A stretch of DNA of 64,000 nt from Candidatus Poribacteria bacterium (GCA_965219695.1 CBDCOJ010000031.1:414561-478560), one strand, 5' to 3'. Positions 17,384 to 58,718 are shown, counted from the first letter of the stretch. Notes: generated from the letters alone by a model not told the origin. Numbers and translations are program-made.

Positions 17384-17416
17384 AAGAGGCGCAATGAATT
17401 GCGCGACTACGAACGG
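17384..17416 (-). repeat. Hairpin repeat family C (CGTAGTCGCGCAATTCATTGCGCCTCTTA), reverse orientation
   Basis: This is the reverse complement of the motif at 49589 and 57703. The core is the GCGCAAT-TC-ATTGCGC hairpin. Confidence 0.7.
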
Positions 17417-19286: not shown

Positions 19287-20799
19287 TACTATAGTTTGGA
19301 CAGTTTTAATTTTTTTAGAGACAAAAAGCAGAAAAGAGGTTATCCTTTCAGTATAACATTTACTTTGAAAGGACATCAAAATGGATCCTCTTTCCCGCTT
19401 AGAAACTATGTTATCAGATTATCAACACCTCTTCAAGTATAAAAACTTCAACCATTTTCGCACTTTTGTCACGGGTTTGATAAATACTCCGCATCGTGGA
19501 ACGATGACACAGATATATCAATCTACAAGACCTTCAACAACCTATTGGACATTGCCGAAGTTTCTTGATCGCAGCCACTGGTGTATTGACAAACTTACAT
19601 CGGTTTTGACACGGCAAGTTCAAAGCGTTTTTAGCGAAGGTGTCTATGTTTATGATGTGACCAAGTCTACCCATGAAGGTTCTGATCAATATGGCACACA
19701 TTTTTTCATAAACACCCGATATAACAAGCGCAATAAGAACCAATCCAAGTTCCACCACGGGCACGAGTTCGGTGCGATAGGATGGCTCTGTGAAACGCCA
19801 CAAGGCACAAGTCTTTTTCCGTTAGCTGCACGGGTCGTGTGTCCCGGAAAAAAACGGGATACGAGTCTTGAGGTGCTCAAGCGCATCTGTGCCAATATAC
19901 CACCCGGTCTCATCGTATTTGACAGAGGTTTTAATAGACGCAAAGTATTTACTTTGATCCTTTCACAAGGACATCACTTACTCTGTCGCGCAAAGTCAAA
20001 TGCTGTGTTCTATCAGATACCAACGCGACCGAAAGAACCGAAACGAGGCAGACCACGTCGCTATGGAAATCGTGTGCATCTCCCCTATCTGAAGTATAGA
20101 GATATTGTCGTGAAAAACAAGACACTTTCTGTCGCAGACAAAGTCGTGCGGACAAAGATGTGTTCAGAGAATGTCAGGCTCGTTGTGATACGCACACGCA
20201 AGAAGAAATCTAAACCGTATCACTATTTTTGTTTATTTACCTCTGATTTACAACTCCCCGTAGTCGATGTCATCCGACACTATAAAAATCGGTGGCAGAT
20301 TGAAACGGCATTTCGCGATGTGAAACAGAACTTCGGCTTTGATACATATCAAATCCGAAAGCGTAAAAGTTTGAACCGGTTCGCACAACTGAGTTTTGTT
20401 GCAGCAAGTCTCACACAACTTATTTTCACAAATATAGTATCGGATACAGAAAAAGAGGATATGTCTGTTAGCGTAGCAGACGTGTTGAGCACACTGAATA
20501 TGCAGTGGTATAAAGCAAAATATCTGACACGCGGATTGATGGTCGCTTATATGCGACGCTGTTTCCAACAACACTATTTTTCTGCGAGTAACGATCCGAA
20601 ACAAAACTTAGCAAAAAATCTAAAAATAGATGAAGACACCACATGAAACTGAATAGATTACACATTTTTGACGATCCTGTCAAAAATAATCGCAAAATAC
20701 AGTGATTCCAACAAAATTCAGAGAAGCAGGAATGCTTACAAAACAGACTGAACACTTGTTCGGAAGTCCTCAAAGGATAAAATTGTCCAAACTACAGTA
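19287..20799 (+). mobile_element. Insertion sequence (IS4/IS701-like) with terminal inverted repeats
   Basis: A single DDE-transposase ORF is flanked by inverted repeats TACTATAGTTTGGACA (19287..19302) and TGTCCAAACTACAGTA (20784..20799). The element is about 1.5 kb. Confidence 0.55.
19381..20646 (+). CDS. DDE transposase (IS4/IS701-like)
   Basis: 421 aa. The N-terminal '...FRTFVTGLI...' region and overall length fit the IS701/IS4 transposase architecture. The family assignment is from memory and was not searched. Confidence 0.6.
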   Translation: MDPLSRLETMLSDYQHLFKYKNFNHFRTFVTGLINTPHRGTMTQIYQSTRPSTTYWTLPKFLDRSHWCIDKLTSVLTRQVQSVFSEGVYVYDVTKSTHEGSDQYGTHFFINTRYNKRNKNQSKFHHGHEFGAIGWLCETPQGTSLFPLAARVVCPGKKRDTSLEVLKRICANIPPGLIVFDRGFNRRKVFTLILSQGHHLLCRAKSNAVFYQIPTRPKEPKRGRPRRYGNRVHLPYLKYRDIVVKNKTLSVADKVVRTKMCSENVRLVVIRTRKKKSKPYHYFCLFTSDLQLPVVDVIRHYKNRWQIETAFRDVKQNFGFDTYQIRKRKSLNRFAQLSFVAASLTQLIFTNIVSDTEKEDMSVSVADVLSTLNMQWYKAKYLTRGLMVAYMRRCFQQHYFSASNDPKQNLAKNLKIDEDTT

Positions 20800-22985: not shown

Positions 22986-23163
22986 GTGGGTTCTTTATAG
23001 TTTGCTGGTGCTGCTATTTATTCTCCACAACGATTTTTGGTTATGGGGGACACCTCAACTTGTTTTAGGACTACCAGTTGGATTGTTATATCACATTGTG
23101 TTTTGCTTTGCCGCATCTCTACTTATGTTTTTTATAGTCAAATTCGTATGGAGGGAAAAATGA
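22969..23163 (+). CDS. Small two-helix membrane protein (DUF3311/YhdT-like) preceding the SSS symporter
   Basis: 64 aa with two hydrophobic helices. Its stop overlaps the start of the downstream symporter, an arrangement common for small partner proteins of SSS transporters. Confidence 0.4.
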   Translation: MKTTLKWVLYSLLVLLFILHNDFWLWGTPQLVLGLPVGLLYHIVFCFAASLLMFFIVKFVWREK

Positions 23164-24619
23164 TCCTTACGGTCATTATTATTTATTTGGCTTTAGTGCT
23201 GAGCATAGGTATTCTAAGCCATAAGTTTTTCCAAAAAACGGGCGAAGACTATTTTGTGGCAAGTCGTAACATTAATTGGTTTGTGCTATTGATGACGCTT
23301 TTTGGCACAAACATGACAGCGTTTTCTATCCTCGGCGCATCTGGAGAGGCTTACCACAGAGGTATCGGTGTTTTTGCATTAATGGCATCCTCTTCTGCTA
23401 TCATCGTACCATGTGTGTTCTTCTTTATCGGAACCCGTCTGTGGCAGATCGGAAAAAAGTTTGGATACATGACACAGGTACAATACTTTCGCGATCGTTG
23501 GGAATCAAATAGTTTGGGTATACTTATTTTCTAGTCCTTGTGCTACTCCTCATTCCTTATCTACTTATTGGGGTAATGGGAGGCGGTGGAACATTGGCGA
23601 CAATTACAGAGGACATGATTCCACAGTGGTTAGGTGGATTACTGGTGTGCGCTGTTGTATTATGTTATGTTACCTATAGCGGAATGCGTGGCACAGCATG
23701 GGTCAATACATTTCAAACGCTTGTTTTTATGACACTTGGAGGTATTGCCTTTGTAGTTATTATAAATCGTATGGGAGGATTTTCCAACGCGCTTTCTAAA
23801 GTCGATACAAATTTGCTGATGCAGGCTAATCACATTGAGCCGTTAGAACTTTTCACATATACATGTATACCACTTTCTGTTGGCATGTTTCCGCATATTT
23901 TCTCACATTGCCTGACAGCGAAAGATGTTAGCACCTTTCGTTATCCAATAATTTTCTATCCGATCTGTATCGCAATTGTTTGGATTCCAAGCGTGTTACT
24001 TGGGATATTGGGTAACGTGGGTTTTCCGAGTTTAGAAGGACCGCAAGTTAACAATGTGCTGATTCAGATGATTCGTGAATACGCCCCAGGCATTTTGTCA
24101 GGCTTTTTAGCAGCAGGTGTGTTTGCAGCAATCATGTCTTCATTAGATTCACAATCGCTCTCTCTTGGCAGCATGTTTACACACGACATCGTTCGTCCTT
24201 ACCTTAGAAAACATGGACAAGAACAGATGTCCGAAAAACAACAGGTATGGTATGGACGATTATTTGTAGTCTGTGTCCTATGCATTACCTATATCATTTC
24301 TCTTATTGCTACACCGAGTATTTTTAAGCTCGCAATTTGGTCTTTTACAGGTTTTTCTGGACTATTTCCGATAGTAGTTGCTGCACTTTTTTGGAAACGT
24401 AGTACAAAGCATGGTGTATACGCATCTATCATTAGTGTCATACTACTATGGTTATATTTCTTTCTCAACAATTGGAAAACACCCGGATATACTGTTGGTG
24501 GAACAGGAATTATGCCTGTAGCAGTAATTATCCTTATATCTTCATTAACCTTGATATTTGTTTCTTTACTTACAAAACCGCCATCAACAGAAACTGTTGA
24601 AAGGTTTTTCATCAATTGA
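23160..24619 (+). CDS. Sodium:solute symporter (SSS family), interrupted by a frameshift near 23513..23534 (two ORF pieces 23160..23534 and 23540..24619)
   Basis: The N-terminal piece 'MILTVIIIYLALVLSIG...YFVASRNINWFVLLMTLFGTNMTAFSILGASGEAY' is the classic SSS start. The downstream piece continues the polytopic permease in another frame. It is either a pseudogene or a sequencing error. Confidence 0.55.
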
Positions 24620-30110: not shown

Positions 30111-30162
30111 GATTCAATAAGCATTTACTATTGGTCTGTCTACTCCAAAATTGCGGGTATAG

Positions 30163-42600: not shown

Positions 42601-45600
42601 GTAAAAACAAACTGACACTTGCGTCAAATATACTTAATCGCATTCAAAGGCAGCCTTATGTTTATACAAGCAGACAAGCGTGGATACCTAAGAGTTTTGA
42701 AGACGCACAAGTTGGTGCACTTATTCAGTTGAAAATTATCATGGAAGAAGAGGATAAAATAGACGAGTTTGTTGCGCAATTTGAGAAAAATGCTGACGAG
42801 AATCCGAAAGATGTCCAGACTCTTGAACAATTAGCACAGCTTTATGTCTTGACTGGAAAACGTGACAGATCCGAACAAATTACTGAAAGGTTAATCGCTG
42901 TATCCCCAAACAATCCTGCGTATCAAGGAATGCAGCTGAATCTACTCCAAACACAGCAAAAACTTAATTATGATACGTTAATGAAACAACTTGAACAGAT
43001 GACGTGGTTGACACCAGAAGATCGGCAATGGTATATGGCAGACTTTGCCAGAAGGTTTAGCTACCAAGAACAGAGAGAAGATGCTGAAAAACTTTTAGAC
43101 GATCTTGAAAAAATAAAAGTAATTAACCCGAATGTCTTTACCATGTTAGTTAGTACTTTTGTACAGTTGGGGAGAACAGACACGGCAGAGAAATTTATTG
43201 AGCAATTTTCGGCTACAACGCCCCAATTATCTCAACAACATGTCCGCATCTATCAAACACTTGCTACTACTTATCTCCGCAATGGAAAAGATGACAAAGC
43301 AGCAACAATCTATTGGCAATATTTAGAACGTACGAAACCAAGCGTTACGAATCCACGCCGGACTATGGCACTTAGCACGTCCACTGCTTACTCCTACGGC
43401 GGATACTCCCAGATTCAAGCAAATTTTCCTGCACCCACAACCTATTATACACAAGACCGGTTGCAGTCTCTACAGCAAATTTTTAATCAGTTTTGGATAA
43501 ACGATCAACATCAAGCACTGTATAATGTTTTACAAACACAGATAGATGCCGCTGAAGGAAGAGACCGAATCTATCCTGCTTTAGCGATGTGCTACTGTTA
43601 CTGGTGGGAAAACAAACGCGAAACTGCTTTACAAATACTTTCTGGGCTGCAGCAGGAATTTGATGATGACCTCACACTTAAACTCAATACTGTTCTGGTT
43701 TCAATACAGGCAGGTGAACATAAAGCAGCATTAGAACTTCTTCAGAATCTTGCGGATGCAGACCCAAGGAACCGTCGCCAATATTTTGACCTGACTTTAC
43801 AGGTCGCAGTCCATGTAGGTGATACGCTCATTGTCCGCGATTTGATCACAAAAGTGCTGAACTCTCCGATTAGTGTGCGCGAACTTTTCAATTTTTCACA
43901 AAAACTGCAGCAGAACGGTCTCACGCAATACGCTATAGCTGTCGCCAAGAAAACAGCGACCTTAGCGATGCGTGAACGTGACGCGAACTTCCTCGTGCAA
44001 TTAAGCCAACACTTGGCTCAACTCGGTAGAGGACAAGATGCAGCGCGCATAGCAGCACGCGCTATACAATTCGCAAACCAACAAGACCGCTTTGGACGCA
44101 CGTTACAATCATATTATCTTCAACAAGCATCGCGTCTCGCCAGTCGTTCCACGTCTGTGTCTGGCGGAAACCGTGCAGAAAAGTTAATTGAAGCAGCGGA
44201 AAAAAATCCAAATTCATTTCAAGCTCAGCTGAGATTAGCGTCATACTACGAAGGTAGAAACCAGATACATAAGGCTTCAGCGGCTTATGATGCAGCACTT
44301 GCATTACGCCCCAAAGACAATTCTACCCGCATGCGATATGCACAAATGCTACAACGCAATAGACAAGCAAAAAACGCTGTAAAACAATACAGCATTCTCA
44401 TGAAAGATAAAAAGAATTTCCAAACTATATTTTACAACTACTGGGAAATTGTCCGTACATTTACTGATGCCAGAGAAATAGATAAATTGGTCGCAATCGC
44501 AAAAGAGGCAATTGGGGAAGGCAACCAATATTCTATGGGAAACGAATTCGCAATGAGAGCGGCTCAAGAATGTGTTAGAAACAAATATCCAAAGGCTGCC
44601 GCTGAAATCTATGAAAAAATAATGGAATCTGGTAGAAGGAATGTTTATAGCCAATTAGCAGATGCTTATACAGCAGCGGGTCAACGCGAGAAGGCAATCC
44701 AACTCTTACGCGAGAAACTAAAATCAGAAAAAGCAGAATCAAAGGTTAACATCTTGTTAAAGTTTGCAAAATTTGATGAAACACAAGATGAAATTAAAAC
44801 TTTTGTAACCGAGTACGACGAAGCAATCACTGATGAAAAAGTTGATCCGGCAACACTTTATCTTGCCGCTGTTACGAAGATTGTGACAAATGATTTAGAA
44901 GGCTCTGATCCAATTGTCAATAGACTCCTTGAACAGATTCCATCACAGTCAAGGCTTCAATGGCTAAGTTCATTAGCGAATACATACAGAGAAAAATTAG
45001 ACCTTAATCGCGAAATCCGAATACTTGAAGCTGCAACCCAGAAAGTTGACCCGCAGAATTCTTGGCAACTTTCAGATGTTTATATGAAACTTGGAACGGC
45101 ATATTCTAAAAAGGATGAAAAAGAGAAGGCACAGAATGCTATCAGGAAAATGGGAACACTCCGACTTATGCGGCGTGGTGCACCACAATATTATGAGAAA
45201 GAGAACGTGGCACAAACATATATTAAACACGAATTGTGGGACGAAGCAGAAATCCTGTTAACCGAAGTAATCAACGATCTTTCAGCACAACAGTATTACA
45301 AAGAACGCGCACAAGAACAACTTGTAACAATCCAGCAGAGACGGGATGGTGTTACAGACAACCAACAATCTAACAGAAGGACAGGACGAGTTAATATTGG
45401 GGTGCAACGATCAATGGCACAACAACTCATGCGCCGTAATCAAATCCCTGAAGCCATAAAAGTTTATGAACAAATAGCGAAAGCGATGCCGGAAGACCTT
45501 GAATCCCGCTCTCAACTCGCTAATCTCTATTCACGCCAAAATCAGCATGTAAAGGCTTTAGAAATTTGGAAGGCATTGCTTGAAGCCGATCCTGAAAACA

Positions 45601-48600
45601 CCAAATTCCAAGATGGGATCATAGAGGCATATCAGAACACAGGAAAATCTGAGGAGGCAATAACACTCGCACTGAAATATATTCAGGACGAACCTGGAAA
45701 CGGTCTTCATCACGCTCGTCTCGCGCATCTTTACTACAGCAAGGGTCAACGTAAAGAAGCAATTGCATCCTACAAAAAAGCAATTGAACTCTCACCAGGA
45801 AATGCCGATATTTATGAGAAATTGGCGGTTCTCTATTTGCGTAGTAATCAGCTGGATGATGCAGAGAAAGCATTCAAAGAAGCACTTCAGTATGCTGCGC
45901 AGACACACCAACATCAGAATATCCAACGACAATTGATAGAAATCTATCGTCGTCAAGGTAAACTTGAAGAATACTTAAAAGAAGTGGAAAATCAAGGGGC
46001 ACTTTCCTTTGATATGCTGAAGGAACTTGCACGCAACTATCAGAATCAGGGTAAATTAGATGAAGCCGCTAAGACATATACAAAAGCACTTCAGGTTGCC
46101 CCTCATGAATATGAGGAGCGTAATATTGAACGCCAAATTATAACTATTTATCGAAAGCAAGGTAAATTAGAAGAAAAGTTAAAAGAAGCGGAAAAGAATG
46201 ACACGCTTACTTTTACTATGCAAGTGGAACTTGCTCGGCAATATCGTTCTAAAGGAGAATCGGATAAAGCGATTATTGCCTACAAGAATGCTATCAACAT
46301 GTCATCCAGAGACTATGGAGTAAATAACGTCTATAGCGAATTAATGCAGGAGTACGTCCGACGTGGTGAAGATGATTTAGCAATTGAACTTCACGATTCT
46401 ATATCTCAGCCAAATTCACTCACTACCTCTATCAGACATAACCAATCTGGTTTCGTTGTCACCTTCGGTGGAGATGAAGCACGTAAAATCTTGATTGATG
46501 CCTACAAAAACAAAGGGAAATTGGACCAGCTGCAAGCAATTTTTGATTCTAAACTCGAAAAGGAACCTACAAACCCGATACTTCTTGAGGTAGTAGCCGA
46601 GATTTATCGAAATGCAAAAAACCATGAGAAAAGTGCTGAGGCATACCAAGCACTTTGCAAAGCGGATCCGAGCAATGTTCGCAGTTTTTATTATGCTGCC
46701 GCCGCTCTGAATAAAACTGGAAATTCAGAACTCGCTGAAAAGCTATTAAAACAAGGTGCCACTGCCCTTGAATCCAGCAACCGTCCTAACGAAATGTGGT
46801 ATCTCTGTGCTCTCGGTTCTATCTGTTATGATGCTAAAATGTATACACCTGCGATCAAACTCTTTAAAGGCGCTATTGCTGCCAACACGATGCACAGACA
46901 CGGTGGGCATAGATGGGAAGAGGAGATATTATATGACCTCATCGGAAAAAGTGCACTTGCTACAAAACAGTATGAAGAAGCCATTGATGCATATCAGCAG
47001 TTGAAAAAAATCGCACGTGATAACAGAAAAAAACAAGCTGCCGAAAAAGCGATTGCACAAGCATATATAGATGGAAACCTTCATGCCAAAAAGATTCCTG
47101 AACAGATTAAGAATGTTGAAGACAATCCTAATGATGTAGATGCCCGTCTCGCGCTCGCAGAAACTTATGAATCAAGCGATAAGGTTGAAGAAGCTATTGT
47201 GCAATACCAAAAGATTAGCGAACTTCAACCTGACAAAGCGCAATGGCACAAAAAAATCGGAGATCTCTATCAAAAGCCACGCGAGGCAAAGGATGGTGTT
47301 CAGAAGAATAAAGCGGTGGAGTTAGATGGGAATTATAGTTTTGTTGAAGTCGGTAAAAGCGACACACTAAACACCATAAATCAACATCTTACTGTGTCTG
47401 CCTGGATTAAACCGACTGAATTTCGAAACAGATATACGCCTATAATTTTTAAAGGTGACAGACGAAGTCCAAACATCAGTAATCGGAGTTTCACATTGTG
47501 GCTTCGGGATGATGGGGTTATTCAATTTGCTTCATCGCCTAAGGGACTCGGCGAACGCAAAATTTTTTCCCCACGCGGATCAATTATGCTCAATACATGG
47601 TATCACTTAGCTGGCGTCATTGATACCCAAAGAAATTACATAAAACTTTACATTGACGGTATTGAAGTTGGTCAACAAGATTATAGTGGTGTACCAAATA
47701 TTTATGAAAGTATACTTCCTTTCCGAATTGGTGGTTCACACGAGGAAGAAGTGACCACCCACGCAACCTTTGTTGGACAAATTGACAACGTAAGTGTTTG
47801 GAATATCGCACTGACACCAGAGCAAATTCGTTCTAATATGAAAAAGAAACTGACAGGTAACGAACCTGGCTTAGTAGGACACTGGAATTTTGACAGAAAG
47901 TCGGAAGTATCTATTCCAGATGCATCACCAAATAAGAACGATGGAAAATTAATCGGCAATGCTAAACTAATCGAGTATAATTTTCCTGTTTTTGCCGATG
48001 CCAGCGCGGAACAATTGAAAAAAGCAGCAGCAGCTTACGAAAAAGCTATCTCGTTTGAACCTGACTCGTATGAACTCTATAACTTGGTCGCAAAAATTCA
48101 TACGAAACAAGATGATCCATCCAAAGCCGAAGCCGTATACCGTCAAGCGTTGCAAGCATCTCTCAGACCAACAGAACATGATTCTGCTGTCAAAGCCATC
48201 TTGGAACTTTACGAAGGTAAAGAACATGCTGATAAGCGACTTACTATTCTTGAAGAACTTGGATCAAAATCAGGAAATAGTCCATTTCTACATAAAATGT
48301 TAGGCGATACCTATGTTGAATCGGGTGATACGGATAAGGCAGCATCTGCATATAGAAAATGGTTGGAAATACTTAAAAATGAGCCTAATCAGGGAAAATA
48401 CGCACAAGAATATTTCCAACTTGCTGAGCGGCTTCTTAATCAGAATATCATGCCAGATATTGCGTTGGAACTTGCCAAACAAGCAGCTGGAACCCGATCA
48501 GATTCAACCTACTTTTCTACCTTAGGGCATGCTTATCTGGTTAATGAACAGTATGGCAAAGCATTAGAAAATTTTCAGTCCAGTCTTCAACTTATGAATC

Positions 48601-49331
48601 GTAACGGAAAAGTTAGCGGAGATAGAATAGAACATTTACTAACGCGTATCTCTCAAGTAGGTAAGAATGTAAAAGACAAAGCACTGTACATTGAGATGAT
48701 AGGTAATTTGGTCGATGCAATACCTGACCATCCAGACAACCCGTTAAACGCTAATCTATCATTAGCCGAATTCTGCCATCAACTTGGAATGACAGAAATG
48801 GCAAAAACCTATATTCTGAAAACTGGCTTTTTCCCTGAAACTGCATGGTTGACACTTGGTCCATTTGACAATACGAAGGGAGTCGGCTACAATACCGCTT
48901 ATATTCAGGAAGAAAAAACTCAGATTGATACTGAAGCAAAATACGATGGGGTTACTGGACAAGTTAGTTGGAAACAAGGCACTGATGAAACCTATAACGG
49001 GTTCTTCGATTTTGGTGACGAAGAAAAAATGTACACCGCGTATGCGTGGATAATTTTCACCTCTCCTGAAGAACGAAAAGCACAAATCCGATTCGATAGT
49101 GACGACCAAGGGAAAGTGTGGTTGAACGGCAATAAAGTGTATGCACACAGAAGAACTCGTGGTGCTGTAGTTGACCGCAGAACTATCCCAGTGACACTTA
49201 CTGCTGGACGAAACACTATCCTCGTTAAAGTCTGTAATGAATCACTTCCTTGGGGATTTTATCTGCGGATTACTGATACTGAAGGTAAACCCTTTGATGA
49301 TTTAAAAATCACCGACCAAACACAAAACTAA
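39630..49331 (+). CDS. Giant secreted TPR-repeat protein (paralog P2), colinear with P1 plus an inserted LamG domain
   Basis: Alignable with P1 along its whole length; for example 'KKDDPYRRCLSLREIGKIHEDTG' is identical in both. A LamG domain (about 47290..47960; '...LTVSAWIKPTEFRNRY...WYHLAGVID...FVGQIDNVSVWNIAL') is inserted between the 'IGDLYQK' and 'AAYEKAI' positions that are adjacent in P1. It has the same C-terminal domain. Confidence 0.8.
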   Translation: MFGREKYAIALCVLSLLFSTLLLSPIILAQDGINDAQIIERYKLMLNQKPKEGSTFDRLYQFYLEGDGLESMVTDYQAEAQAKPNDPNIQLILGHIYKRLGKDKDALTAYQRAVELAPDNYYTYFALGQLHVTLRQHEDAIRELTKSVTLSEQSQAVSPEELTAIYKALGQAYFSRDKLDDAIQAWEKISELDPQNVFARIELADLFREKELYPQAIEQHQAIIETKKDDPYRRCLSLREIGKIHEDTGEYDKAREHYDKALDLTAPGNWLRKDLQHRIIAIYSTDANWKDLITYYQGKLETDPNDVELLGLLAAAYIEDQQFDEGTDTYRKGLELAPTDTSLRLSLIAALRNAEKFEAAATEYEALSEQQPDDFGIYRELGKLYLQLEDEDKAKTIYQKMIDRDPQNASTHLTLAEIYTGHEWIEEAVAAYQKAISLAPQNLDYIEYFGEFYFRQANREKAIETWNQMVADGKNTPENYDRLARLLEAKKFPTEAIDASKKAVELMPDAYRFREALAKRLMNDKQYDDALLEYTEAIKLAPNEFFAEQMDDQRIELYRKQGTLVEKVEDAEAQFEKPGLSDTDKFTQLKRLAKMYLKLSNTTYALEILLKAKALQPNDIDVNRETANLYTKQGRRDEAIVIYKHLTEIDSTNAREYHANIAKAYLKGMDFEAAIDAAKQVIAHSPRNPEGHQLLAEIAKQSTKYEEAIDSYKQAIRLRPEAIDIRIELAALYNRSGNSRQAIAQYWRCWELSDNISDKLSFIKPLSEAYYDLGRRGELEEKLKQMAKSNTSGVGAVLGLAQVYRLEGDLSSARFQLARALDRQRENAELLSELVDISSDLGDMQEALTYQQRLVKANPDPVHQQKLGELLFDAGREQEAIQAWSKVLHAKNQTLEAEVKLAKLLIRYGLLEEALFALDNAAEKISGKDAHLALYQIGAKLVEINEAERAIPHFQRILAMPEPATDSTTTVTSNNTTTNVPTSYYGPPGLSKNKLTLASNILNRIQRQPYVYTSRQAWIPKSFEDAQVGALIQLKIIMEEEDKIDEFVAQFEKNADENPKDVQTLEQLAQLYVLTGKRDRSEQITERLIAVSPNNPAYQGMQLNLLQTQQKLNYDTLMKQLEQMTWLTPEDRQWYMADFARRFSYQEQREDAEKLLDDLEKIKVINPNVFTMLVSTFVQLGRTDTAEKFIEQFSATTPQLSQQHVRIYQTLATTYLRNGKDDKAATIYWQYLERTKPSVTNPRRTMALSTSTAYSYGGYSQIQANFPAPTTYYTQDRLQSLQQIFNQFWINDQHQALYNVLQTQIDAAEGRDRIYPALAMCYCYWWENKRETALQILSGLQQEFDDDLTLKLNTVLVSIQAGEHKAALELLQNLADADPRNRRQYFDLTLQVAVHVGDTLIVRDLITKVLNSPISVRELFNFSQKLQQNGLTQYAIAVAKKTATLAMRERDANFLVQLSQHLAQLGRGQDAARIAARAIQFANQQDRFGRTLQSYYLQQASRLASRSTSVSGGNRAEKLIEAAEKNPNSFQAQLRLASYYEGRNQIHKASAAYDAALALRPKDNSTRMRYAQMLQRNRQAKNAVKQYSILMKDKKNFQTIFYNYWEIVRTFTDAREIDKLVAIAKEAIGEGNQYSMGNEFAMRAAQECVRNKYPKAAAEIYEKIMESGRRNVYSQLADAYTAAGQREKAIQLLREKLKSEKAESKVNILLKFAKFDETQDEIKTFVTEYDEAITDEKVDPATLYLAAVTKIVTNDLEGSDPIVNRLLEQIPSQSRLQWLSSLANTYREKLDLNREIRILEAATQKVDPQNSWQLSDVYMKLGTAYSKKDEKEKAQNAIRKMGTLRLMRRGAPQYYEKENVAQTYIKHELWDEAEILLTEVINDLSAQQYYKERAQEQLVTIQQRRDGVTDNQQSNRRTGRVNIGVQRSMAQQLMRRNQIPEAIKVYEQIAKAMPEDLESRSQLANLYSRQNQHVKALEIWKALLEADPENTKFQDGIIEAYQNTGKSEEAITLALKYIQDEPGNGLHHARLAHLYYSKGQRKEAIASYKKAIELSPGNADIYEKLAVLYLRSNQLDDAEKAFKEALQYAAQTHQHQNIQRQLIEIYRRQGKLEEYLKEVENQGALSFDMLKELARNYQNQGKLDEAAKTYTKALQVAPHEYEERNIERQIITIYRKQGKLEEKLKEAEKNDTLTFTMQVELARQYRSKGESDKAIIAYKNAINMSSRDYGVNNVYSELMQEYVRRGEDDLAIELHDSISQPNSLTTSIRHNQSGFVVTFGGDEARKILIDAYKNKGKLDQLQAIFDSKLEKEPTNPILLEVVAEIYRNAKNHEKSAEAYQALCKADPSNVRSFYYAAAALNKTGNSELAEKLLKQGATALESSNRPNEMWYLCALGSICYDAKMYTPAIKLFKGAIAANTMHRHGGHRWEEEILYDLIGKSALATKQYEEAIDAYQQLKKIARDNRKKQAAEKAIAQAYIDGNLHAKKIPEQIKNVEDNPNDVDARLALAETYESSDKVEEAIVQYQKISELQPDKAQWHKKIGDLYQKPREAKDGVQKNKAVELDGNYSFVEVGKSDTLNTINQHLTVSAWIKPTEFRNRYTPIIFKGDRRSPNISNRSFTLWLRDDGVIQFASSPKGLGERKIFSPRGSIMLNTWYHLAGVIDTQRNYIKLYIDGIEVGQQDYSGVPNIYESILPFRIGGSHEEEVTTHATFVGQIDNVSVWNIALTPEQIRSNMKKKLTGNEPGLVGHWNFDRKSEVSIPDASPNKNDGKLIGNAKLIEYNFPVFADASAEQLKKAAAAYEKAISFEPDSYELYNLVAKIHTKQDDPSKAEAVYRQALQASLRPTEHDSAVKAILELYEGKEHADKRLTILEELGSKSGNSPFLHKMLGDTYVESGDTDKAASAYRKWLEILKNEPNQGKYAQEYFQLAERLLNQNIMPDIALELAKQAAGTRSDSTYFSTLGHAYLVNEQYGKALENFQSSLQLMNRNGKVSGDRIEHLLTRISQVGKNVKDKALYIEMIGNLVDAIPDHPDNPLNANLSLAEFCHQLGMTEMAKTYILKTGFFPETAWLTLGPFDNTKGVGYNTAYIQEEKTQIDTEAKYDGVTGQVSWKQGTDETYNGFFDFGDEEKMYTAYAWIIFTSPEERKAQIRFDSDDQGKVWLNGNKVYAHRRTRGAVVDRRTIPVTLTAGRNTILVKVCNESLPWGFYLRITDTEGKPFDDLKITDQTQN

Positions 49332-49445
49332 CTACGACAGACTCCTCTGCTTATTTGCAGATTTCCATCGGTTATAGCACAATTCATTGAACGTACTTTA
49401 GCGATTTAGTGGAATATCTATTCTAAAATTATAGGTATCAGCAAT

Positions 49446-49552
49446 AGTCGGGAATCGGAGTTCCCTCGGACAAAGACGGACCATCTTCTGTAGGCGGTGA
49501 ATGCCTAAATGGCATTCATACCGTTGATTTCGATCTCCGAATCGCGACCTAT
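49446..49552. repeat. Family A/B composite palindromic repeat
   Basis: GTCGGGAATCGGAGTTCCCTC...GGTGAATGCCTAAATGGCATTCATACCGTTGATT...GATCTCCGAATCGCGAC. Confidence 0.75.
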
Positions 49553-49588
49553 ACCCGCAATTTTAGAGTAGACAGAACAGTAGAGGTG

Positions 49589-49626
49589 CGTTTGTAGTCG
49601 CGCAATTCATTGCGCCTCTTACATTT
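49589..49626 (+). repeat. Hairpin repeat family C (GTAGTCGCGCAATTCATTGCGCCTCTTACATTTG)
   Basis: A 7-bp stem GCGCAAT/ATTGCGC with a 2-nt loop, followed by CTCTTACATTT. Copies occur at 17384 (reverse complement) and 57703, with a variant at 52097. Confidence 0.7.
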
Positions 49627-49721
49627 GCGTATGTCACACAGAATGTGTCTACTACTTTTATTCGTTACGTAAATCCTGTTTATTTACCAAATGCTGCTTA
49701 CTTGATTACGGAGGTAATTTT

Positions 49722-51856
49722 ATGTACACGCAACGGAATTTCTTCATAATTGTATGTATCCTACTACTATTCGCCTTTAACTTCAGTTATTCCATCGAAT
49801 TATCAGCACAAGATACCGAGACCGAATTTAATGAATCTATTGAGGATACTGCACTGGATTTAGATGGCAACTTTAGTTATGTTGAAACCGTTGACAGCGA
49901 TGTGTTGAATACACTTAGCGAACAGGTTATGTATCTGTATGGATAAAAGCGACTGATTTCCCCAACAGATATGCTCCTATCGTCTACAAAGGTGACCCAC
50001 GCACCCCTGATATTAGTAATCGAAGTTATGCCATGTTTTTACGGGATGACGGCGCTATTCAATTCGCGTCATCACCAAGGGGATTGGAAGAACAATATAT
50101 CTTTTCACCATCTGAGGCAATTACACTTAACAAATGGCATCACGTCGCAGGTGTCGTTGATACACAAAGAGATTTTATCAAAGTCTTCATCGACGGTTTT
50201 GAAGTTGGTAGGACAAATTTTAGAGGACAGCAGCGTTTTTATGAAAGTTTACTTCCATTACGAATTGGGAATTCACATGAAGATGACAGAGAAACTCACT
50301 CCTCCTTTGTCGGTCAAATTGATGAGGTCAGTATCTGGAACATTGCTTTGACTGAAAATCAGATCCGAACTTGTATGAAAAAGCAGTTGGTCGGAGATGA
50401 AAAAGGCTTAGTGGGTTATTGGAAATTTGATGAACAAACAGATGGTATCGTCTCTGATATCTCATCAAATCAGAACGATGCTTTCTTAATCGGTGGCGTA
50501 AAACTTACCAGATACATTCGTCCTTTCTCAGCCTTTGTCGGCCCAGGACAACTGCAGGAAGCTGCTACCGCTTATGAAAAGGCTCTCACTCGTGATACGA
50601 ATTCTTATGAAGTATACCGTTCACTGGCAGAAATATACATCAGAACAGGACGTCTATCCGATGCCGAAAAGATCTATCTTCGTGCTTTAGAGGCTGATCT
50701 CACTCAATCCGAACATGATGATGCGATTCAAGTCCTCCATAAGTTTTCCGTTGTGAACGGCACAAAAGAGGAGTTTATCAATCTACTTGAAAAACTGAGA
50801 CCGAAAATGGAAGGAAGTGCTATTCTACATCAACTGTTAGGGGATGCTTATAAAAACGCTGGTGAGGAAGAGAAAGCTAAAATCGCCTATTCCCAATGGC
50901 TAAAGATCATAAAAAAAGAAGTTGACAGGAAAAATGATGCATCGACATATTACGATCTTGCTGTAGAACTTCTTGAGAAAAACATGTTTCCTGAAATGGC
51001 TTTGGAATTCGCGTTTAAAGCAACAGAAACACCATCAAGTCCAGATTACATCATTACACTTGTACAAGCATTTCTCGTGAATGAACAGTATGAAAACGCA
51101 TATCAAATCATTGAGAGCATTTTTGATATGATGTTTTTACCTTATGTTGAGCGTGATCTGTTATCGCAGGTTGTCAAAACCGGAAAAAATGTAAAAGACA
51201 AAGAAGGTTATGTTGAAATGTTGAATCAACTGATTGACTCTATGTCTGATAATCTTCGCTCACAGCTAAGTACTACACTTGCATTGGCACAATTTTATAG
51301 AGAAAGTGGCCAAGATGAGAAAGCAAATGCGCTTATCCGAAAAACAGGCTTTATTACCGAAGATGCTTGGATGATTCTTGGTCCATTTGATAACGTCGGA
51401 GGGATTGGATTTAATACAGCGTACATCCCAGAAAACCTACCTAAGATTGACCTCACCGCAAAATACGATGGGATAAATGGAAAGGTGAGTTGGCAAAAAA
51501 GCACAGATGATAATCTATATGGCCATATACAACTTGGCGAAAAAGGCGTAGATTGGCAGGCAGCGTATGCGTTTGCAACTGTCCACTCACCAGATGAACG
51601 GCAAGTAGAATTCCGATTTGACTCCGACGACCAAGGGAAAATCTGGTTAAACGGTATTGAGGTTTTTTCACATACGAAAACCTTTACTGCTGAAATTGAC
51701 AATTACATTATTCCTGTAACCCTCCAACCGGGTAACAACAGTATTCTTGTAAAAGTTTGTGAAGAAACAGGTGGTTGGGGATTTTATCTGCGGATTACTG
51801 ATACTGAAGGCAAACCGTTTGATGATTTAAAAATCACTGACCAAACACAAAACTAA
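49722..51856 (+). CDS. Secreted LamG plus helical module plus conserved C-terminal domain protein (paralog P3); apparent 1-nt frameshift near 49925
   Basis: Signal peptide ('FFIIVCILLLFAFNFSYS'). The LamG start ('ALDLDGNFSYVETVDSDVLNTLSEQ') continues in the +2 frame ('YVSVWIKATDFPNRYAPIVYKGDPRTPDISNRSYAMFLRDDGAIQF'), which joins the 50033..51856 ORF. The listed ORF 49971..50351 is a wrong-frame artifact. Confidence 0.6.
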
Positions 51857-51970
51857 CTACGACAGACTCCTCTACTTATTTGCAGATTTCCAACGGTTAT
51901 AGCACAATTCATTGAACGTACTTTAGCGATTTAGTGAAATATCTATTCTAAAATTATAGGTATTAGTAAT

Positions 51971-52038
51971 AGTCGGGAATCGGAGTTCCCGACTACAAAG
52001 ACGGACCATCTTCTGTAGGAGCGATCTCCGAATCGCAA
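51971..52038. repeat. Family A palindromic repeat
   Basis: GTCGGGAATCGGAGTTCCCGAC tacaaagacggaccatcttct GTAGGAGCGATCTCCGAATCGC. Confidence 0.75.
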
Positions 52039-52216
52039 CAGACAATGATATGCTGACAAAGCACTACGCACTTTGCAGTTTCAAGCGTTCGAAAGTTTGT
52101 AGTAGCACAATTCATTGTGCGTTCTTAGCAATTTTGGTTCAATTCGTTGGGCACTCTAAATTTGCTTGTTCGTCTTGTTTATTTCAATAGTTTTTATTTT
52201 ATTCGGAGGTATTTTA

Positions 52217-54386
52217 ATGTCCATGCAACGAAACTTCCCTATATTTGTATGCGTCCTATTGGTATTCATGTTTAACTTCAGTTATTCTACCTATATCTTC
52301 GCACAAGATTCCGTGAATGAAAAGAAGACTGCCCAGAGTAATAAGGTTAATTCTACCGGATATGATGAGAGAATTGTAGATACTGCGCTTGATCTTGACG
52401 GAAAATCAAGTTACGTAGAAATCGGAGACAGTGAAACTTTAAACAATATTACGGAACAGTTGACGGTGTCAGTGTGGATAAGACCAACAAGTAATCCAAA
52501 TAGATACACAGCGATTTTATCAAAGACCGACGCATGGGTTGACCGTATCACGCATCGAAGTTTCATAATGAATTATAAGGAAGGTGGTTCAATTCAATTT
52601 GCAGCGTCTCCTGTCGGTGAAGGTGAAGCGTCTCTTTATTCCCCAAATGGTATCATCAAACACAACATCTGGACACATATAGCAGGCGTTATTGATGCAG
52701 AAAAGAATTACATGAAACTTTTTGTTAATGGAATTGAAGTCAGCAATAGAGATTTTAAATGGAAAGAAAGTATCTATAGAAGTCAGCTCCCGCTGCGTAT
52801 TGGGTGGTCACATGAGAATAGGACCGCTCAATCTTCATTTGTCGGGCAAATTGACGATGTGCGTATCTGGAACATTGCACGCACTAATGCAGATATCCGA
52901 TCTGATATGATTACTCCACTTAACGGGGATGAACCCGGCTTAGTTGGATATTGGAAATTTAATAAAGTAACAGACGGTATTATCTCGGATATGTCCCCAA
53001 ATCGTAACGATGGTCGATTGGCAGGCAATTCAGAACTGACAGAATACATCCGTCCAATTACTGCCTTGACCAGTAAGGAACAACTGGCAAAAGCAGCAAT
53101 TGCTTATGAAGAGGCACTCTCTCAAGGAACAAACTATTATGAAACGTTCCGTTATCTTGCCGAAATTTATATCAAAACAGAACGTATTTTAGATGCAGAA
53201 AAGGTCTATTTACGCGCATTAAAGGTAGACCTCACGCAAAGCGAACAAAACGATGCAATAAGAGACCTCTGGAGACTTTACACCGAGAGAGATGCAGTAG
53301 ATGAATTCCTTACAATACTTGAAGAACTGAAACCAAGAATGCAAGGAAGTTCTGTTCTGCATGAACTATTAGGTGATGCTTACAAAAACGCTGGTCAGAA
53401 AGAAAAAGCTGAAATTGCCTATACACAGTGGCTTAACATCCGAATGAAGGAAGTAAAAATGCAAGCTCGTGCGTCTGAATATCGCATCCTTGCGGAAGAA
53501 CTACTTAAGAAGAATCTTTTTCCTGATACTGCGTTGGAATTGGCGGAAATTGCATTGGAAAGAATATCTGGCTCAAGATATATGATTACCTGTGCCCATG
53601 CCTTACTCGTAAATGAGTTCTACGATGAGGCTTTTCACCAAATTAGCAGTTTTCTCAATGCTGGGTATTATGAATATACTGAACGTAGCATGTTTGAACG
53701 AATTGTTCAGGCAGGAAAAAATGTCAAAGACAAAGACGGATATATTGTGATGTTAAATCAACTTATTGATAATTTGACCTTTGATCTACCTGCACAATTA
53801 AATACTATCATGGCTTTAGCCCAATTCTATACAGTCAATAACCAGCATGAAAAAGCAGAAGCACTTATCCAAAAAAACAGGATTTATCACCGAAGACGCA
53901 TGGACGATTCTTGGTCCGTTTGACAACGTTGATAGAATCGGCTTTAATACTAAATACATTCCGGAAAACTTGCCGCAGATTGATGCCACCGCAAAATACG
54001 ATGGGAAAAATGGACAAGTGAGTTGGGAAAAATGTCAGGATAATTTTATTGACGGTTATATCCGTATCCAACCCACCGTTAATTGGAGTGTTGCATATTC
54101 ATTCGCAACTGTCCATTCTCCAGATGAACGGGAAGCCGAATTCCGTTTTGATTCCGATGACCAAGGTAAAGTCTGGTTAAACGGTATAGAGATGCATGCA
54201 CACACAAGAACCTATGCTACAGATATTGATAGAGATATTATTCCTGTGACTCTCTCTCCAGGAAAAAATAGTATCCTCATCAAGGTGTGTGAAGAGACCA
54301 GAGGTTCGGGATTTTATCTGCGGATTACCGACACAGATGGAAAACCCTTTGATGATTTAGTATTTTCTATCTCAGAGAGAAATTAA
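52217..54386 (+). CDS. Secreted LamG plus helical module plus conserved C-terminal domain protein (paralog P4); frameshift at A7 run 53869..53875
   Basis: The start is moved to ATG 52217, which has a GGAGGT RBS and is homologous to the P3 start. LamG ('LTVSVWIRPTSNPNRY...FVGQIDDVRIWNIA'). After 'HEKAEALIQK' the homologous sequence 'KTGFITEDAWTILGPFDN...' continues in the frame of ORF 53847..54386. Confidence 0.6.
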
Positions 54387-54480
54387 AATTGAATGTGGTT
54401 CAACTAAGCAAATTGTGTGAATCAACGCCTAAAATAGTTCAGAGCCATTCAATTGTCGAGTTTTCCCTATTAATTGTATT

Positions 54481-54686
54481 GTAGAAGCGAACTCCGGGGA
54501 ATGCCATACGCGCATTCATACCCGCCAAATGCCATACGCGCATTTGGCGTTGATTTGGACAGATGCCAACAGGCATGTGGCGTTGATTTGGGTGAATGAC
54601 TAAACGTCATTCATACCGTTGATTTCTTGATTTGGATTCCCGACCATCATTGTGTTTTGTCGCGATTCGGAGATCGCTCCTACAAG
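54481..54686. repeat. Dense cluster of family B (GAATGCC..GGCATTC / AATCAACGGTATGAATG) and family A palindromic repeats
   Basis: The cluster lies between P4 and the next gene. Confidence 0.7.
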
Positions 54687-54908
54687 AAGGAAAGTGTAGC
54701 ATGTGCGATTACTGGAGAATTGAATAACTCTGTAAAATAGATAAAAAGAACTTGACATATAATGTAATAATATAGTACACTATTAACAAACTCGTAGAAA
54801 ACTCAGCATTTAATCATTTTCCCAATAACGTTATGCCTATGGTCGCGCTCTTGTTAAGGAAATACCCTGTTTAGAGCAGCGCACTATGGTCATCGGGAGG
54901 TATACTTC

Positions 54909-56396
54909 ATGCAGGAAAAATTGATTCTTGAAAAGATTCGTCATGTCCGCCGTCGCTTGAACGTACAAGGATATTTTCAAACACTCGCGACGTTTCTATT
55001 ATTTGGACTTTTGGTGTGTGTCCCAGTAATTATCGTTGATAGCCTCATTACCTCTTTTAATATTCCACCACTTGTATTTCTCGGGATTGCAGGCGGCATT
55101 GCAGTCATCGCTCTGATTGTCCGTCTTATTCGGCCAGTTAATCTACAGGAAGCAGCCCGCGCAATTGATATAGACGCATCACTTAAAGACCGCGTCGTCA
55201 GCGGTCTGGAGCAGATTCAACGCAAAACCGATGAAACGTTGACCACTCTTCAAATCCAAGATACCTCTAAAAGGTTACAAGCAATTCCTATCAAACAGGT
55301 TGCTCGATATACTGTCCCGCGTGAAACTAAATACCTTGCTATTGTTGTCGCTTTTCTCATTACTTTCTCGTTTGTTGAGTTTTTTGCCCCACCTGCCACC
55401 TCAACAGAGATTGACTTCTCGCCAGAAATCGCTGCGGAGGCAGATACGCTGTTAAAAAAGATTGAAGAGGCAAAGAAAGAAGCTGAACTGAGTGAAGATC
55501 AGGAACTTAAAGAAATCTTGAAAGAAATTGAGGAAAGAACACTTAAGTTGAAAAAACCGCAGATTGCTCCAAAGGATGCTCTCGCCAGAATGACCGAATT
55601 GAGTGCGCTCTTGAAAACGAAAATAGACCCGCACAAAATGGCACAACAAGAAGAGTTGATGAAGGGACTCGGACAACAGTTCATTGGTAATCCGATCCTC
55701 GGCGAATTTGGGCAACAGTTGAAACGCGGTGATTACAAAGAAGCAGCTGACAAACTGGACAAAGTGGCAGAAGATGTTCCGAAGTTTGACCAAGAAAAAC
55801 GTCAAAACTTGTCCGATGAACTCAAACGTGCTGGTAAAAGCCTGAAGAATACTGACCTCGACGGTCTTGGAGGCGAATTATCTGGCACAGGGGAATCACT
55901 TGACGGAAACGATGCCGAAGGTGCTCAAAAAGGCCTGCGCGCTTCAGGGAAAAAAATCCGTGATTTTGATCTTCTCAAGAGTCGCAACCAACGGTTGGCA
56001 AAGTTATTGTCCGAATGTGAGGCATGCAAAGCAGGTATCGCAGGTGCTTGCAACAGCAAAGGTATTAACCCTGCTACAGGGCTGACAAAATTGTTATCTA
56101 ACAAACCGGGTCAGGGTATAGGTAATAAAACTTCTGAGACCCAACAAGGTGATCTTACTTCCCTCGATTCTACCCTTAATCTTGAACAGCTCACGGGTGT
56201 CCAAGGCGAAGGTAGTTCTACTGTTCAAACCTCCAAGGCATCGGCGGAAGGTCAAGAATCTGCCCTCAGTTACAAAGATGCTTATATGAAGTATCAGAAA
56301 CTTTCTGAAGATGCACTCACTGAAGAACAGATCCCTCTTGGTTATAAGTTCTATGTGAAACGTTACTTTGAATCGATTAAACCGACTGATGAGTAA
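54909..56396 (+). CDS. Hypothetical membrane-anchored coiled-coil protein
   Basis: 495 aa. Two N-terminal TM helices, a third helix near aa 140, then a long charged coiled-coil-like region. It lies upstream of the MoxR cluster on the same strand. Confidence 0.4.
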   Translation: MQEKLILEKIRHVRRRLNVQGYFQTLATFLLFGLLVCVPVIIVDSLITSFNIPPLVFLGIAGGIAVIALIVRLIRPVNLQEAARAIDIDASLKDRVVSGLEQIQRKTDETLTTLQIQDTSKRLQAIPIKQVARYTVPRETKYLAIVVAFLITFSFVEFFAPPATSTEIDFSPEIAAEADTLLKKIEEAKKEAELSEDQELKEILKEIEERTLKLKKPQIAPKDALARMTELSALLKTKIDPHKMAQQEELMKGLGQQFIGNPILGEFGQQLKRGDYKEAADKLDKVAEDVPKFDQEKRQNLSDELKRAGKSLKNTDLDGLGGELSGTGESLDGNDAEGAQKGLRASGKKIRDFDLLKSRNQRLAKLLSECEACKAGIAGACNSKGINPATGLTKLLSNKPGQGIGNKTSETQQGDLTSLDSTLNLEQLTGVQGEGSSTVQTSKASAEGQESALSYKDAYMKYQKLSEDALTEEQIPLGYKFYVKRYFESIKPTDE

Positions 56397-56485
56397 GTAA
56401 ACCGAGTTGTCATGTAAATCACCGCAGAGATGATGTGTCTTTGCGGTGATTTAATGTCTAAGCAATACTACCATTAGAGGGAAAC

Positions 56486-57469: not shown

Positions 57470-57591
57470 TTCCTTCCTACAGGAGTGAATTAACACTGAA
57501 TGCGCGTAAGGCATTCAGTGAGTTGTAAATACCATTTCTAAAAAATAACTTCTCTTATAGTGGATTCTACAATTAACTGGACATCTGAACG

Positions 57592-57654
57592 GTAGGAGGG
57601 AACTCCGATTCCCGACTATTAGTAGTTGCGTCGCGATTCGGAGATCGCTCCTAC
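57592..57654. repeat. Family A palindromic repeat
   Basis: GTAGGAGGGAACTCCGATTCCCGAC ... GTCGCGATTCGGAGATCGCTCCTAC. Confidence 0.8.
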
Positions 57655-57702
57655 AGAATTTATGTAAACTTATTTACATAATTTACTATAAGAAATAGCC
57701 TG

Positions 57703-57739
57703 CTCGTAGTCGCGCAATTTATTGCGCCTCTTACATTTC
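57703..57739 (+). repeat. Hairpin repeat family C
   Basis: CTCGTAGTCGCGCAATTTATTGCGCCTCTTACATTTC. Confidence 0.7.
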
Positions 57740-57792
57740 ATTTCAAAGAAAAAATCATAGAATTGATATAACTCTCACCGCGCGAGGTTCCT

Positions 57793-58680: not shown

Positions 58681-58718
58681 CGGATCAATTTTAGCAAACA
58701 TTGTCCATCTGAAATTGA

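Follow-up and report, generated by a model that had tools for sequence, protein, structure and literature searches.

Probable ectopic gene conversion of a coding tail and its flank between tandem tetratricopeptide repeat paralogues of a Candidatus Poribacteria bacterium

Ectopic gene conversion between bacterial paralogues is established for tufA/tufB in Salmonella and for pilS to pilE and opa in Neisseria, and the Rhs and CdiA polymorphic toxin loci are known for C-terminal displacement and 'orphan' modules. Hairpins of the repetitive extragenic palindromic (REP) type that lie downstream of genes can act on transcript 3' ends. We analyzed a 64,000-nucleotide (nt) stretch of a Candidatus Poribacteria genome (GCA_965219695.1, CBDCOJ010000031.1:414561-478560; hereafter the window, with positions counted from its first letter) in which two otherwise divergent tandem paralogues, P2 and P3, end in a near-identical tract that runs on into non-coding DNA. 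The event behind this tract is probably ectopic gene conversion, of a known kind, with repeats resembling REPs and miniature inverted-repeat transposable elements (MITEs) as its context. GTAG-tagged REPs are described in the survey of Di Nocera et al. (2013, PMC3733652) as palindromic units of 20-40 bp with an unpaired GTAG tag at one end, high in copy number and extragenic; the abstract of that survey does not name Poribacteria.

The locus resembles the described conversions in that a patch of a few hundred bases, apparently copied one way, forms a block of near-identity in divergent genes, and the tree of the patch conflicts with that of the gene bodies. It departs from them in that the P2-to-P3 patch has homology at its left junction only, the right one being illegitimate and lying in a mobile element, in that the patch carries non-coding flank and part of that element, and in that the acceptor is frameshifted; unlike the Neisseria and Salmonella examples, it offers no evidence of programmed or high-frequency variation. 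As at Rhs and CdiA loci, the old 3' sequence has been pushed downstream, where it persists, by a new 3' end attached at a conserved coding motif (in the P3 flank of the window and in the P2 tail of a related locus, L004). Unlike those loci, the exchanged coding part amounts to only 5-27 codons and is the end of a structural domain, not a toxin; the variable tail has 5-20 residues, no immunity gene travels along and the next downstream genes are paralogues of the same family. The window also holds 25-nt units that, like GTAG-tagged REPs and REPINs (REP doublets forming hairpins), begin with GTAG, are intergenic and dense, often stand in inverted pairs and vary in ways that preserve pairing. The element carried in the flank is, like a bacterial MITE, non-coding and ~140 nt long, is bounded by 22-nt terminal inverted repeats and has copies at unrelated loci as well as in another genome; no RAYT gene, matching autonomous element or target-site duplication was identified within the window. 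As far as can be shown, this element did not cause the event but travelled with it as a passenger and provided its junction site.

Four same-strand paralogues, P1 to P4, make up the array and have a C-terminal domain in common. Their closest database proteins in a protein search are annotated as Candidatus Poribacteria tetratricopeptide repeat (TPR) proteins, and Pfam models matched on the array proteins were only TPR, Laminin_G_3 and, weakly, RhaB_D2, with no toxin family among them. The genes are as follows.

30654..39515, + strand: P1, first paralogue, a 2953-aa TPR protein that has the C-terminal domain and lacks the tract
39627..49331, + strand: P2, putative donor gene, 3234 aa, with many TPR repeats, one Laminin_G_3 and the conserved C-terminal domain ending WGFYLRITD... 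(open reading frame (ORF) list and Pfam)
49722..51856, + strand: P3, putative acceptor gene, a short paralogue with signal peptide, LamG, TPR and C-terminal domain; frameshifted
52217..54386, + strand: P4, next paralogue, short, with signal peptide, LamG, TPR and C-terminal domain; its tail and flank are unrelated to the tract

A repeat search of the window paired 49212-49494 with 51737-52019 at 92% identity without gaps, and base-by-base alignment placed the core of the tract at 49250..49494 = 51775..52019, where 245 nt contain 12 mismatches (~95% identity), 3 of them coding and 9 in the flank (4 of the 9 clustered at 49466-49469). In 60-nt bins the identity of P2 and P3 was 0.50-0.75 over the preceding 1.8 kb, 0.90-0.98 from ~49253 to ~49493 and 0.35 after that. 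A 35-nt insertion at 49496-49530 is found in the P2 flank only and is absent from the aligned P3 copy; beyond it the copies have a further 18 bases in common, with 1 mismatch, to 49548/52040. In total they differ by 13 mismatches and one 35-nt indel. The boundaries and the main features of the two copies are listed here.

49250..49548, + strand: putative donor copy of the tract in P2, from pairwise and four-way alignment; made up of 27 codons, the 78-nt P2-native flank and the left portion of an inverted-repeat element, with a probably later 35-nt hairpin inside
51775..52040, + strand: putative acceptor copy at the P3 end, 266 nt; P2-type tail, P2-native flank and a truncated inverted-repeat element
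51775..51789, + strand: left junction zone, TGGGGATTTTATCT, 15 nt identical among the paralogues (P2 coordinates 49250-49264), where the diagnostic sites switch
52041..52063, + strand: filler at the right junction, ~23 nt, for which no source was identified
52064..52125, + strand: original flank of P3, CTACGCACTTTGCAGTTTCAAGCGTTCGAAAGTTTGTAGTAGCACAATTCATTGTGCG, now ~205 nt beyond the P3 stop

An earlier note on this DNA had reported a near-identical 3' end of P2 and P3; a tract of high identity is indeed present there, with boundaries other than those it gave. The coding part in common comprises the final 27 codons including the stop, encoding WGFYLRITDTEGKPFDDLKITDQTQN, and not about 70 codons, as divergence over 49200-49249 matches that of the remaining gene, with 8 mismatches among the 18 nt that precede 49250. 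The flank in common, put at about 130 nt, in fact spans 163 contiguous nt plus the 18 nt beyond the insertion, and a supposed A/gap indel after CAGATTTCC is a T/A substitution at 49368. Its description of the gene bodies as much more divergent is borne out by a nucleotide divergence of 0.39 and a four-fold-site divergence of 0.60 between P2 and P3. The tract lies far beyond chance: at the body identity of 0.63 the binomial P for at least 233 of 245 matches is 9e-33, and for the flank alone it is 9e-39 when set against the best flank identity in relatives (0.47).

Related loci with orthologues of the array genes were gathered by protein search and exact-protein look-ups and are given here as L numbers. 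Seven related Poribacteria loci that carry both genes served as within-genome controls, in which P2 and P3 were compared over the gene body, the last 78 nt and the first 165 nt of flank, with the following identities.

Window: body 0.63, last 78 nt 0.96, flank 0.94
L002: body 0.59, last 78 nt 0.60, flank 0.33
L004: body 0.65, last 78 nt 0.76, flank 0.46
L006: body 0.63, last 78 nt 0.72, flank 0.40
L009: body 0.64, last 78 nt 0.77, flank 0.47
L055: body 0.64, last 78 nt 0.63, flank 0.43
L056: body 0.62, last 78 nt 0.69, flank 0.50
L057: body 0.61, last 78 nt 0.64, flank 0.39

The tract is absent from all seven controls (tail identity 0.60-0.77, flank 0.33-0.50) and is therefore specific to the lineage of the window. 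Within that lineage, body and tail of P3 are discordant: the body is 0.88-0.89 identical to P3 orthologues and 0.63 to the P2 of the window, and the tail is 0.96 identical to that same P2. To locate the change, sites were taken as diagnostic if they are uniform among all P2 sequences, uniform among all close P3 orthologues and different between the two groups. Up to 51774, all 17 such sites in the window P3 are P3-type; from 51790 on, all 13 are P2-type, the coding sites at 51790-51848 included. Since the switch falls across 51775-51789, the left junction is placed in TGGGGATTTTATCT, which is part of the stretch encoding the WGFYLRITD motif conserved in all paralogues.

The same comparisons bear on direction. 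The tail and flank of the tract (the flank reading CTACGACAGAC...GCAGATTTCC...GCACAATTCATTG...TTTAGCGATTTAG, with CTACGAC ahead of GCAGATTTCC) come right after P2 in L003 and also in L055, a more distant locus, and in L004 P2-type tail and flank survive ~200 nt downstream, beyond an insertion. P3 orthologues in L004, L006 and L009 end in ...KIVDLNEN and a stop, followed by CCTACGCACTTTGCAGTTTCAAGCG...GTAGTAGCACAATTCATTGTGCG; their P3-native flank, CTACGCACTTTGCAG, stands directly after P3 and is kept in the window at 52064. P2 would thus be the donor and P3 the acceptor, because the tail and flank follow P2 in relatives, P3 orthologues have a flank of their own and the old P3 flank persists downstream. 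The tail and flank of the window P2 match the P2 orthologues of L003 and L055, with no P3-type sequence at P2, so that the transfer appears non-reciprocal, and the two window copies have in common derived changes that destroy a hairpin still intact in L003. The homogenization by gene conversion or recombination proposed in the earlier note thus stands as a short patch between tandem paralogues, with relatives that lack the tract and a clean switch of diagnostic sites; the patch would be one-way, from P2 to P3, and not symmetric.

The two ends of the tract differ in kind: the left one has homology, in the 15-nt identical motif, and the right one has none. The P3 copy of the inverted-repeat element stops at ...GAATCGCAAC (52040), inside the element and without its right arm, and is followed by the filler and then by the ancestral P3 flank, which in L004, L006 and L009 starts two bases after the P3 stop. 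It is this succession of truncated element, source-less filler and old P3 flank that marks the right junction as non-homologous and places it at a hairpin inside a mobile element. A search for the source of the filler in the window and 12 related loci gave chance-level matches only. As a candidate remnant of the old P3 coding tail the filler was rejected, the local alignment score being reached by ~14-18% of shuffles (about 300/2000).

The flank itself is composite and not, as had been supposed, unique sequence, since its distal 105-125 nt are the left part of a multi-copy inverted-repeat element. Its components and their other copies are these.

49332..49409, + strand: P2-native 3' flank, 78 nt, holding a decayed GTAG hairpin, ATAGCACAATTCATTGAACG; copied at 51857..51934
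49410..49583, + strand: full-length MITE-like element in the P2 flank, ~170 nt with and ~140 nt without a nested insert, having 22-nt terminal inverted repeats and two GTAG-tagged hairpins inside
49496..49530, + strand: nested 35-nt hairpin insertion of the GAATGCCTAAATGGCATTCATACCGTTGATTT family, in the P2 copy only
51935..52040, + strand: truncated MITE-like element after P3, with the left inverted repeat and both hairpins and no right inverted repeat; 92% identity over 99 nt by BLAST
30135..30259, - strand: MITE-like element copy upstream of P1, 90% identity over 123 nt, its left inverted repeat with 2 mismatches
858-1023 of L010 (Poribacteria metagenome-assembled genome JAPPCZ010000039): MITE-like element copy, intergenic, between unrelated genes

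The 78-nt native flank, which is duplicated at 96% identity between P2 and P3 of the window, comes immediately after P2 in L003 and L055 and is found ~200 nt further on in L004. Its hairpin is intact in L003, where T6 comes next, and is decayed by the same changes in both window copies (folding z-score -2.61 in L003 vs -0.34 in the window). A scan of metagenomes with an 18-mer from this flank, a short pattern, returned 44 matches, none of them with extended similarity. The arms of the element in the P2 flank, 49417-49438 and 49551-49572, are 22 nt long and 82% complementary, as they also are in the L010 copy. A 26-mer from the tract, scanned against a genome collection, occurred in one other genome only, that of L010, where it belongs to the mobile element at an unrelated locus. 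No target-site duplication was evident at the three full copies of the element, no ORF of at least 150 aa in the window encodes a RAYT (Y1/HUH transposase), and no autonomous element with matching inverted repeats lies within the window, whose sole transposase (19381-20646) has unrelated ends. The 35-nt hairpin was most likely inserted after the transfer, being present in the P2 copy only.

To date the event, we compared the window with L001, a 438-kb European Nucleotide Archive (ENA) metagenome contig (ERZ24894577, ctg521844l) that encodes the exact protein of P3 and, judged from its contig name, looks like long-read assembler output. The two records differ at 12 positions in 21.8 kb (99.945% identity; 0.055% difference) and at none in 49200-52100, so both near-identical haplotypes or assemblies carry the tract unchanged. 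Between the two copies of the tract, four clustered differences (51991..51994, + strand; GACT there vs TCGG at 49466-49469) turn the hairpin of the P3 copy into a perfect 11-bp stem, with a DNA folding energy of -10.0 kcal/mol (z -4.09) vs -3.8 kcal/mol for the P2 copy. Other copies of the family read TTCCCTCC at this place, nearer the P2 state, and the cluster fits a single templated quasi-palindrome correction in the P3 copy. With the cluster counted as one event, 9 point differences remain in ~262 nt (~3.4%), in addition to the nested 35-nt insertion; the overall divergence of the tract is ~0.034-0.06 (6% in the non-coding part when every base is counted). Four-fold-site divergence is 0.17-0.20 from the window to L003, L004, L006 and L009 and 0.60 between the bodies of P2 and P3, and the 3.4-5% by which the two tract copies differ is about one third of what separates the window from its nearest relatives at silent sites.

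Because the divergence of the tract is below this four-fold divergence of 0.17-0.20, the event postdates the split from the nearest relatives, and by the same sequence distances it is far older than the 0.055% difference between the haplotypes. 'Recent', as the earlier note had it, is thus apt relative to that split and inapt in any stricter sense, given the 9 point differences, the 4-nt cluster and the nested insertion. Its picture of an array that is actively rearranging is borne out by no sign on the scale of the population, where two haplotypes carry the tract unchanged, and is fair on the evolutionary scale, where tail swaps recur. Elsewhere in P2, a 1.6-kb part of the TPR region (41018-42593) holds 10 of the 12 positions at which the window and L001 differ. 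This cluster may be a patch imported from another strain; ongoing conversion from P1 to P2 was considered and is not supported, as the alleles match P1 inconsistently (5 in one haplotype, 3 in the other, 2 in neither).

The reading that we favor, and hold to be likely, is a single ectopic gene conversion, a non-reciprocal recombination in which the 3' end of P3 received a patch copied from P2. The copied sequence would comprise the ~27 last codons of P2, the 78-nt native flank and the first ~105-125 nt of a previously inserted inverted-repeat element. Entry would have been by strand exchange or template switching within the 15-nt TGGGGATTTTATCT, and its position there is established by the alignments. 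Copying would then have continued beyond P2 into its flank and stopped, in the absence of homology, at the element's second GTAG-tagged hairpin or just past it; the position of this right junction is likewise established, and the hairpin may have stalled synthesis or caused a break at that point. In this way the old tail of P3 would have been replaced and its old flank pushed ~205 nt downstream, a replacement and a displacement that can both be read directly from the comparison with orthologues. The order of events would be insertion of the element in the P2 flank and the split from relatives, then the transfer, and then the 35-nt insertion in P2, the 4-nt correction in P3 and the divergence of the haplotypes.

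The patch is probably neutral and without functional effect, since P3 is frameshifted in the lineage of the window. Three-frame translation traces the frameshift to a 1-nt deletion at 49929/49930, which splits P3 into ORFs 49722..49946 (the signal-peptide part) and 50033..51856 (607-aa). On alignment to the intact 710-aa orthologue in L006 the deletion changes GGTTACTGT to GGTTATGT and does not lie in a homopolymer; the window and L001 have it in common. The P3 orthologues P0040, P0044, P0037 and P0045 are intact at 710 aa and 93% identical, and the window P3 is probably a recent pseudogene. At the neighboring P4 the window has a run of A7 (53865-53871) vs A6 in L001, which splits P4 into ORFs 52166..53923 and 53847..54386 in the window, L001 having an intact gene of 722 aa; the difference may reflect either a sequencing error in the homopolymer or genuine variation in length.

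Several points weigh against a single conversion. No relative close enough to show the haplotype before the event was found, and both copies were judged from assembled sequence, in the window and in the L001 record. Two of the three coding differences in the tract, at 49286 and 49292, match states present in some P3 orthologues, so the tract could be mosaic towards its left end, or the left junction could lie further right; the two sites are not diagnostic, as they are polymorphic among orthologues. Moreover, a right junction without detectable homology and with an unexplained filler is not what two-ended gene conversion predicts, and the history is possibly more complex. One such history would consist of two steps, in which unequal crossing-over between P3 and P2 at the conserved motif gave a P3/P2 chimera, followed by a full extra P2-P3 spacer and a second P3, after which ~2.3 kb were deleted, starting midway through the inverted-repeat element and reaching the end of the second P3. 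This would still be homologous recombination at the same left junction and would explain why the right one is non-homologous and has filler; the gain and loss of units and the tail swaps among relatives also suggest that unequal exchange occurs in the array. It requires two events, however, and a deletion that ends exactly where the old P3 flank starts; no related locus has an intermediate array with an extra unit, and the filler lacks significant similarity to a P3 tail. We consider this course possible, less parsimonious than a single patch and quite unlikely.

Other explanations dispense with copying between the genes. The same mobile element might have inserted independently after both, with the coding likeness due to ordinary conservation, given that from 49410/51935 on the flank belongs to a multi-copy family (upstream of P1 and in another genome) and that P2 and P3 have fairly similar coding tails in relatives too (0.60-0.77). 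Yet the 78 nt between stop and element lie outside the element, are native to P2 in L003, L004 and L055 and are nevertheless duplicated (96%); the P3 copy of the element has no right inverted repeat, the coding sites at 51790-51848 are P2-type and the old P3 flank has moved as one block, which makes independent insertion highly improbable. A collapsed or chimeric join across a repeat is a concern where short repeats abound and the short-read contigs of relatives end within them. Such an artefact is scarcely credible here, since the copies differ by 13 mismatches and a 35-nt indel and each stands in its own correct context on both sides, since L001, with 12 differences elsewhere, carries both unchanged, and since two switches within 266 nt would be required. 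Selection on a functional non-coding element, such as a terminator, a small RNA or a regulatory site for the next gene, would be in keeping with the native hairpin that precedes a T-run in L003 and with the possible action of REP-type hairpins on transcript 3' ends raised in the GTAG survey (PMC3733652). Set against this, the element is absent after P3 in all relatives and after P2 in L002, L006, L009, L056 and L057, the hairpin is decayed in both window copies (z -0.34) and P3 is probably a pseudogene here; Rfam gave no match in the whole window at gathering thresholds, and a promoter and terminator scan of 49000-55000 found nothing in the tract above shuffle expectation and no terminator-like site. 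We give selection very little weight.

Gene ends elsewhere in the family show related changes. The P4 body of L004 is 0.93 identical to the window P4; after GATGATTT, its tail and flank are 0.80 identical to the P3 of L055 and 0.43-0.47 to its own body orthologues, and the same tail type also follows P2 in L002, L056 and L057. By these identities, the L004 P4 would be a second, independent swap of tail and flank. In L004, L006, L007, L008 and L009, an insertion, which in several of these loci sits right after ...ATCAC(T/C)GACC, shortens the P2 tail to ...KITDP with a new stop; that of L004 has 18-nt inverted ends, CATAACTGTAAACTTGAG and CTTAAGTTTACAGTTATG, and the old tail and flank persist ~200 nt downstream of it. 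The positions are as follows.

L004 15120-15250 vs L055 8115-8240 and L002 3075-3150: tail swap of the L004 P4
L004 9633-9808, L006 3370-3395 and L009 9775-9800: insertions in the P2 3' end

Gene ends in this TPR/LamG family thus seem to have been remodelled repeatedly on evolutionary time scales; the two haplotypes sampled from the population give no evidence that such remodelling is ongoing.

Beyond the tract, the intergenic DNA of the window is rich in small hairpin repeats. A 25-nt GTAG-tagged unit (GTAGGAG-stem-CTCCGA-stem-CGAC) occurs in 13 copies in 64 kb vs 0 expected, all between ORFs, many of them in inverted pairs and with the stem variants GGGAAC/GTTCCC and GCGATC/GATCGC, both of which keep pairing. 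The GAATGCCTAAATGGCATTCATACCGTTGATTT-type family of small hairpins (GAATGNC-loop-GNCATTCATACCGTTGATTT) has 8 copies in the window vs 0 expected and inserts into other repeats, one being nested in the element of the P2 flank and a related unit in the L010 copy; its units also form a tandem run at 54496-54626 in the ~360-nt P4 flank, a sequence that L006 lacks behind its P4. Just downstream of genes lies yet another GTAG hairpin family, the third (GTAGTCGCGCAATTCATTGCGC, variant GTAGTAGCACAATTCATTGTGC), which in L003 is followed by T6 and resembles an intrinsic terminator.

6209-6267, 8834-8858, 15004-15055, 30163-30230, 49447-49471, 51972-52039, 54659-54683, 57592-57654: 25-nt GTAG hairpins
8880-8911, 13175-13206, 26098-26129, 29093-29124, 49499-49530, 54594-54625, 63161-63205: GAATGNC-loop-GNCATTCATACCGTTGATTT hairpins
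17389-17410 (- strand), 49594-49615, 52099-52120, 57706-57727, and 2282-2310 of L003: third GTAG family

Among the other genes of the window, 15543-17327 encodes a Ro60/TROVE-family protein (TROVE and Ro60 vWA domains; a bacterial Rsr-like gene). GTAG hairpins occur in the intergenic DNA beside it, and no Y RNA or member of another Rfam family was found at gathering scores in the whole window. An insertion sequence at 19287-20799 encodes a DDE transposase (19381..20646) between terminal inverted repeats of 22 nt that are 91% complementary; it was rejected as the partner of the element in the P2 and P3 flanks, as the terminal inverted repeats are unrelated. A sodium:solute symporter is spread over two adjacent ORFs in different frames (23037..23534 and 23540..24619), which correspond to the N- and C-terminal parts of one Pfam model, possibly through a frameshift or as a pseudogene. 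Downstream of the array, 54909-60788 encodes a MoxR-type AAA ATPase, a DUF58/VWA protein and a BatA/VWA protein. Their order is conserved together with the array in L006, on which ground the TPR/LamG genes may be part of a Bat-like envelope module.

The tract is a genuine 266-nt near-repeat, 2.5 kb apart, amid intergenic DNA packed with hairpin repeats. Five related short-read contigs (L003, L005, L007, L008 and L009) end 62-246 nt after the P2 or P3 stop, and the small intergenic repeats are the likely cause of these breaks. The hazard for assembly raised in the earlier note is accordingly real for short reads; the P2/P3 tract itself is absent where the loci of relatives are complete enough to tell. 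As the short-read assemblies of relatives end in these intergenic stretches, gene models of the array are reliable only from long reads.

The case reveals no new mechanism, and no phenotype is expected of it, since the acceptor P3 is probably a pseudogene. Its interest lies in being a clean, datable and apparently one-way recombination between tandem paralogues in an uncultured, sponge-associated phylum, with donor, acceptor and both junctions resolved. If any aspect merits a broader survey, it is the recurrent discordance of tail and flank among relatives. Four independent cases (the window P3; the L004 P4 against the L055 P3 and the P2 of L002, L056 and L057; truncation of P2 by an insertion in L004, L006, L007, L008 and L009; and the displaced L004 P2 tail) prompt the tentative idea, which we judge unlikely, that the 3' tail and flank form an exchangeable module, time and again swapped among paralogues or replaced, entered through homology at the WGFYLRITD...DDL motif and left, or broken, at hairpin repeats (GTAG REP-like units and small inverted-repeat elements). 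If this were true, small palindromic repeats would actively shape gene ends, and perhaps terminators and the expression of neighboring genes, in a symbiont genome.

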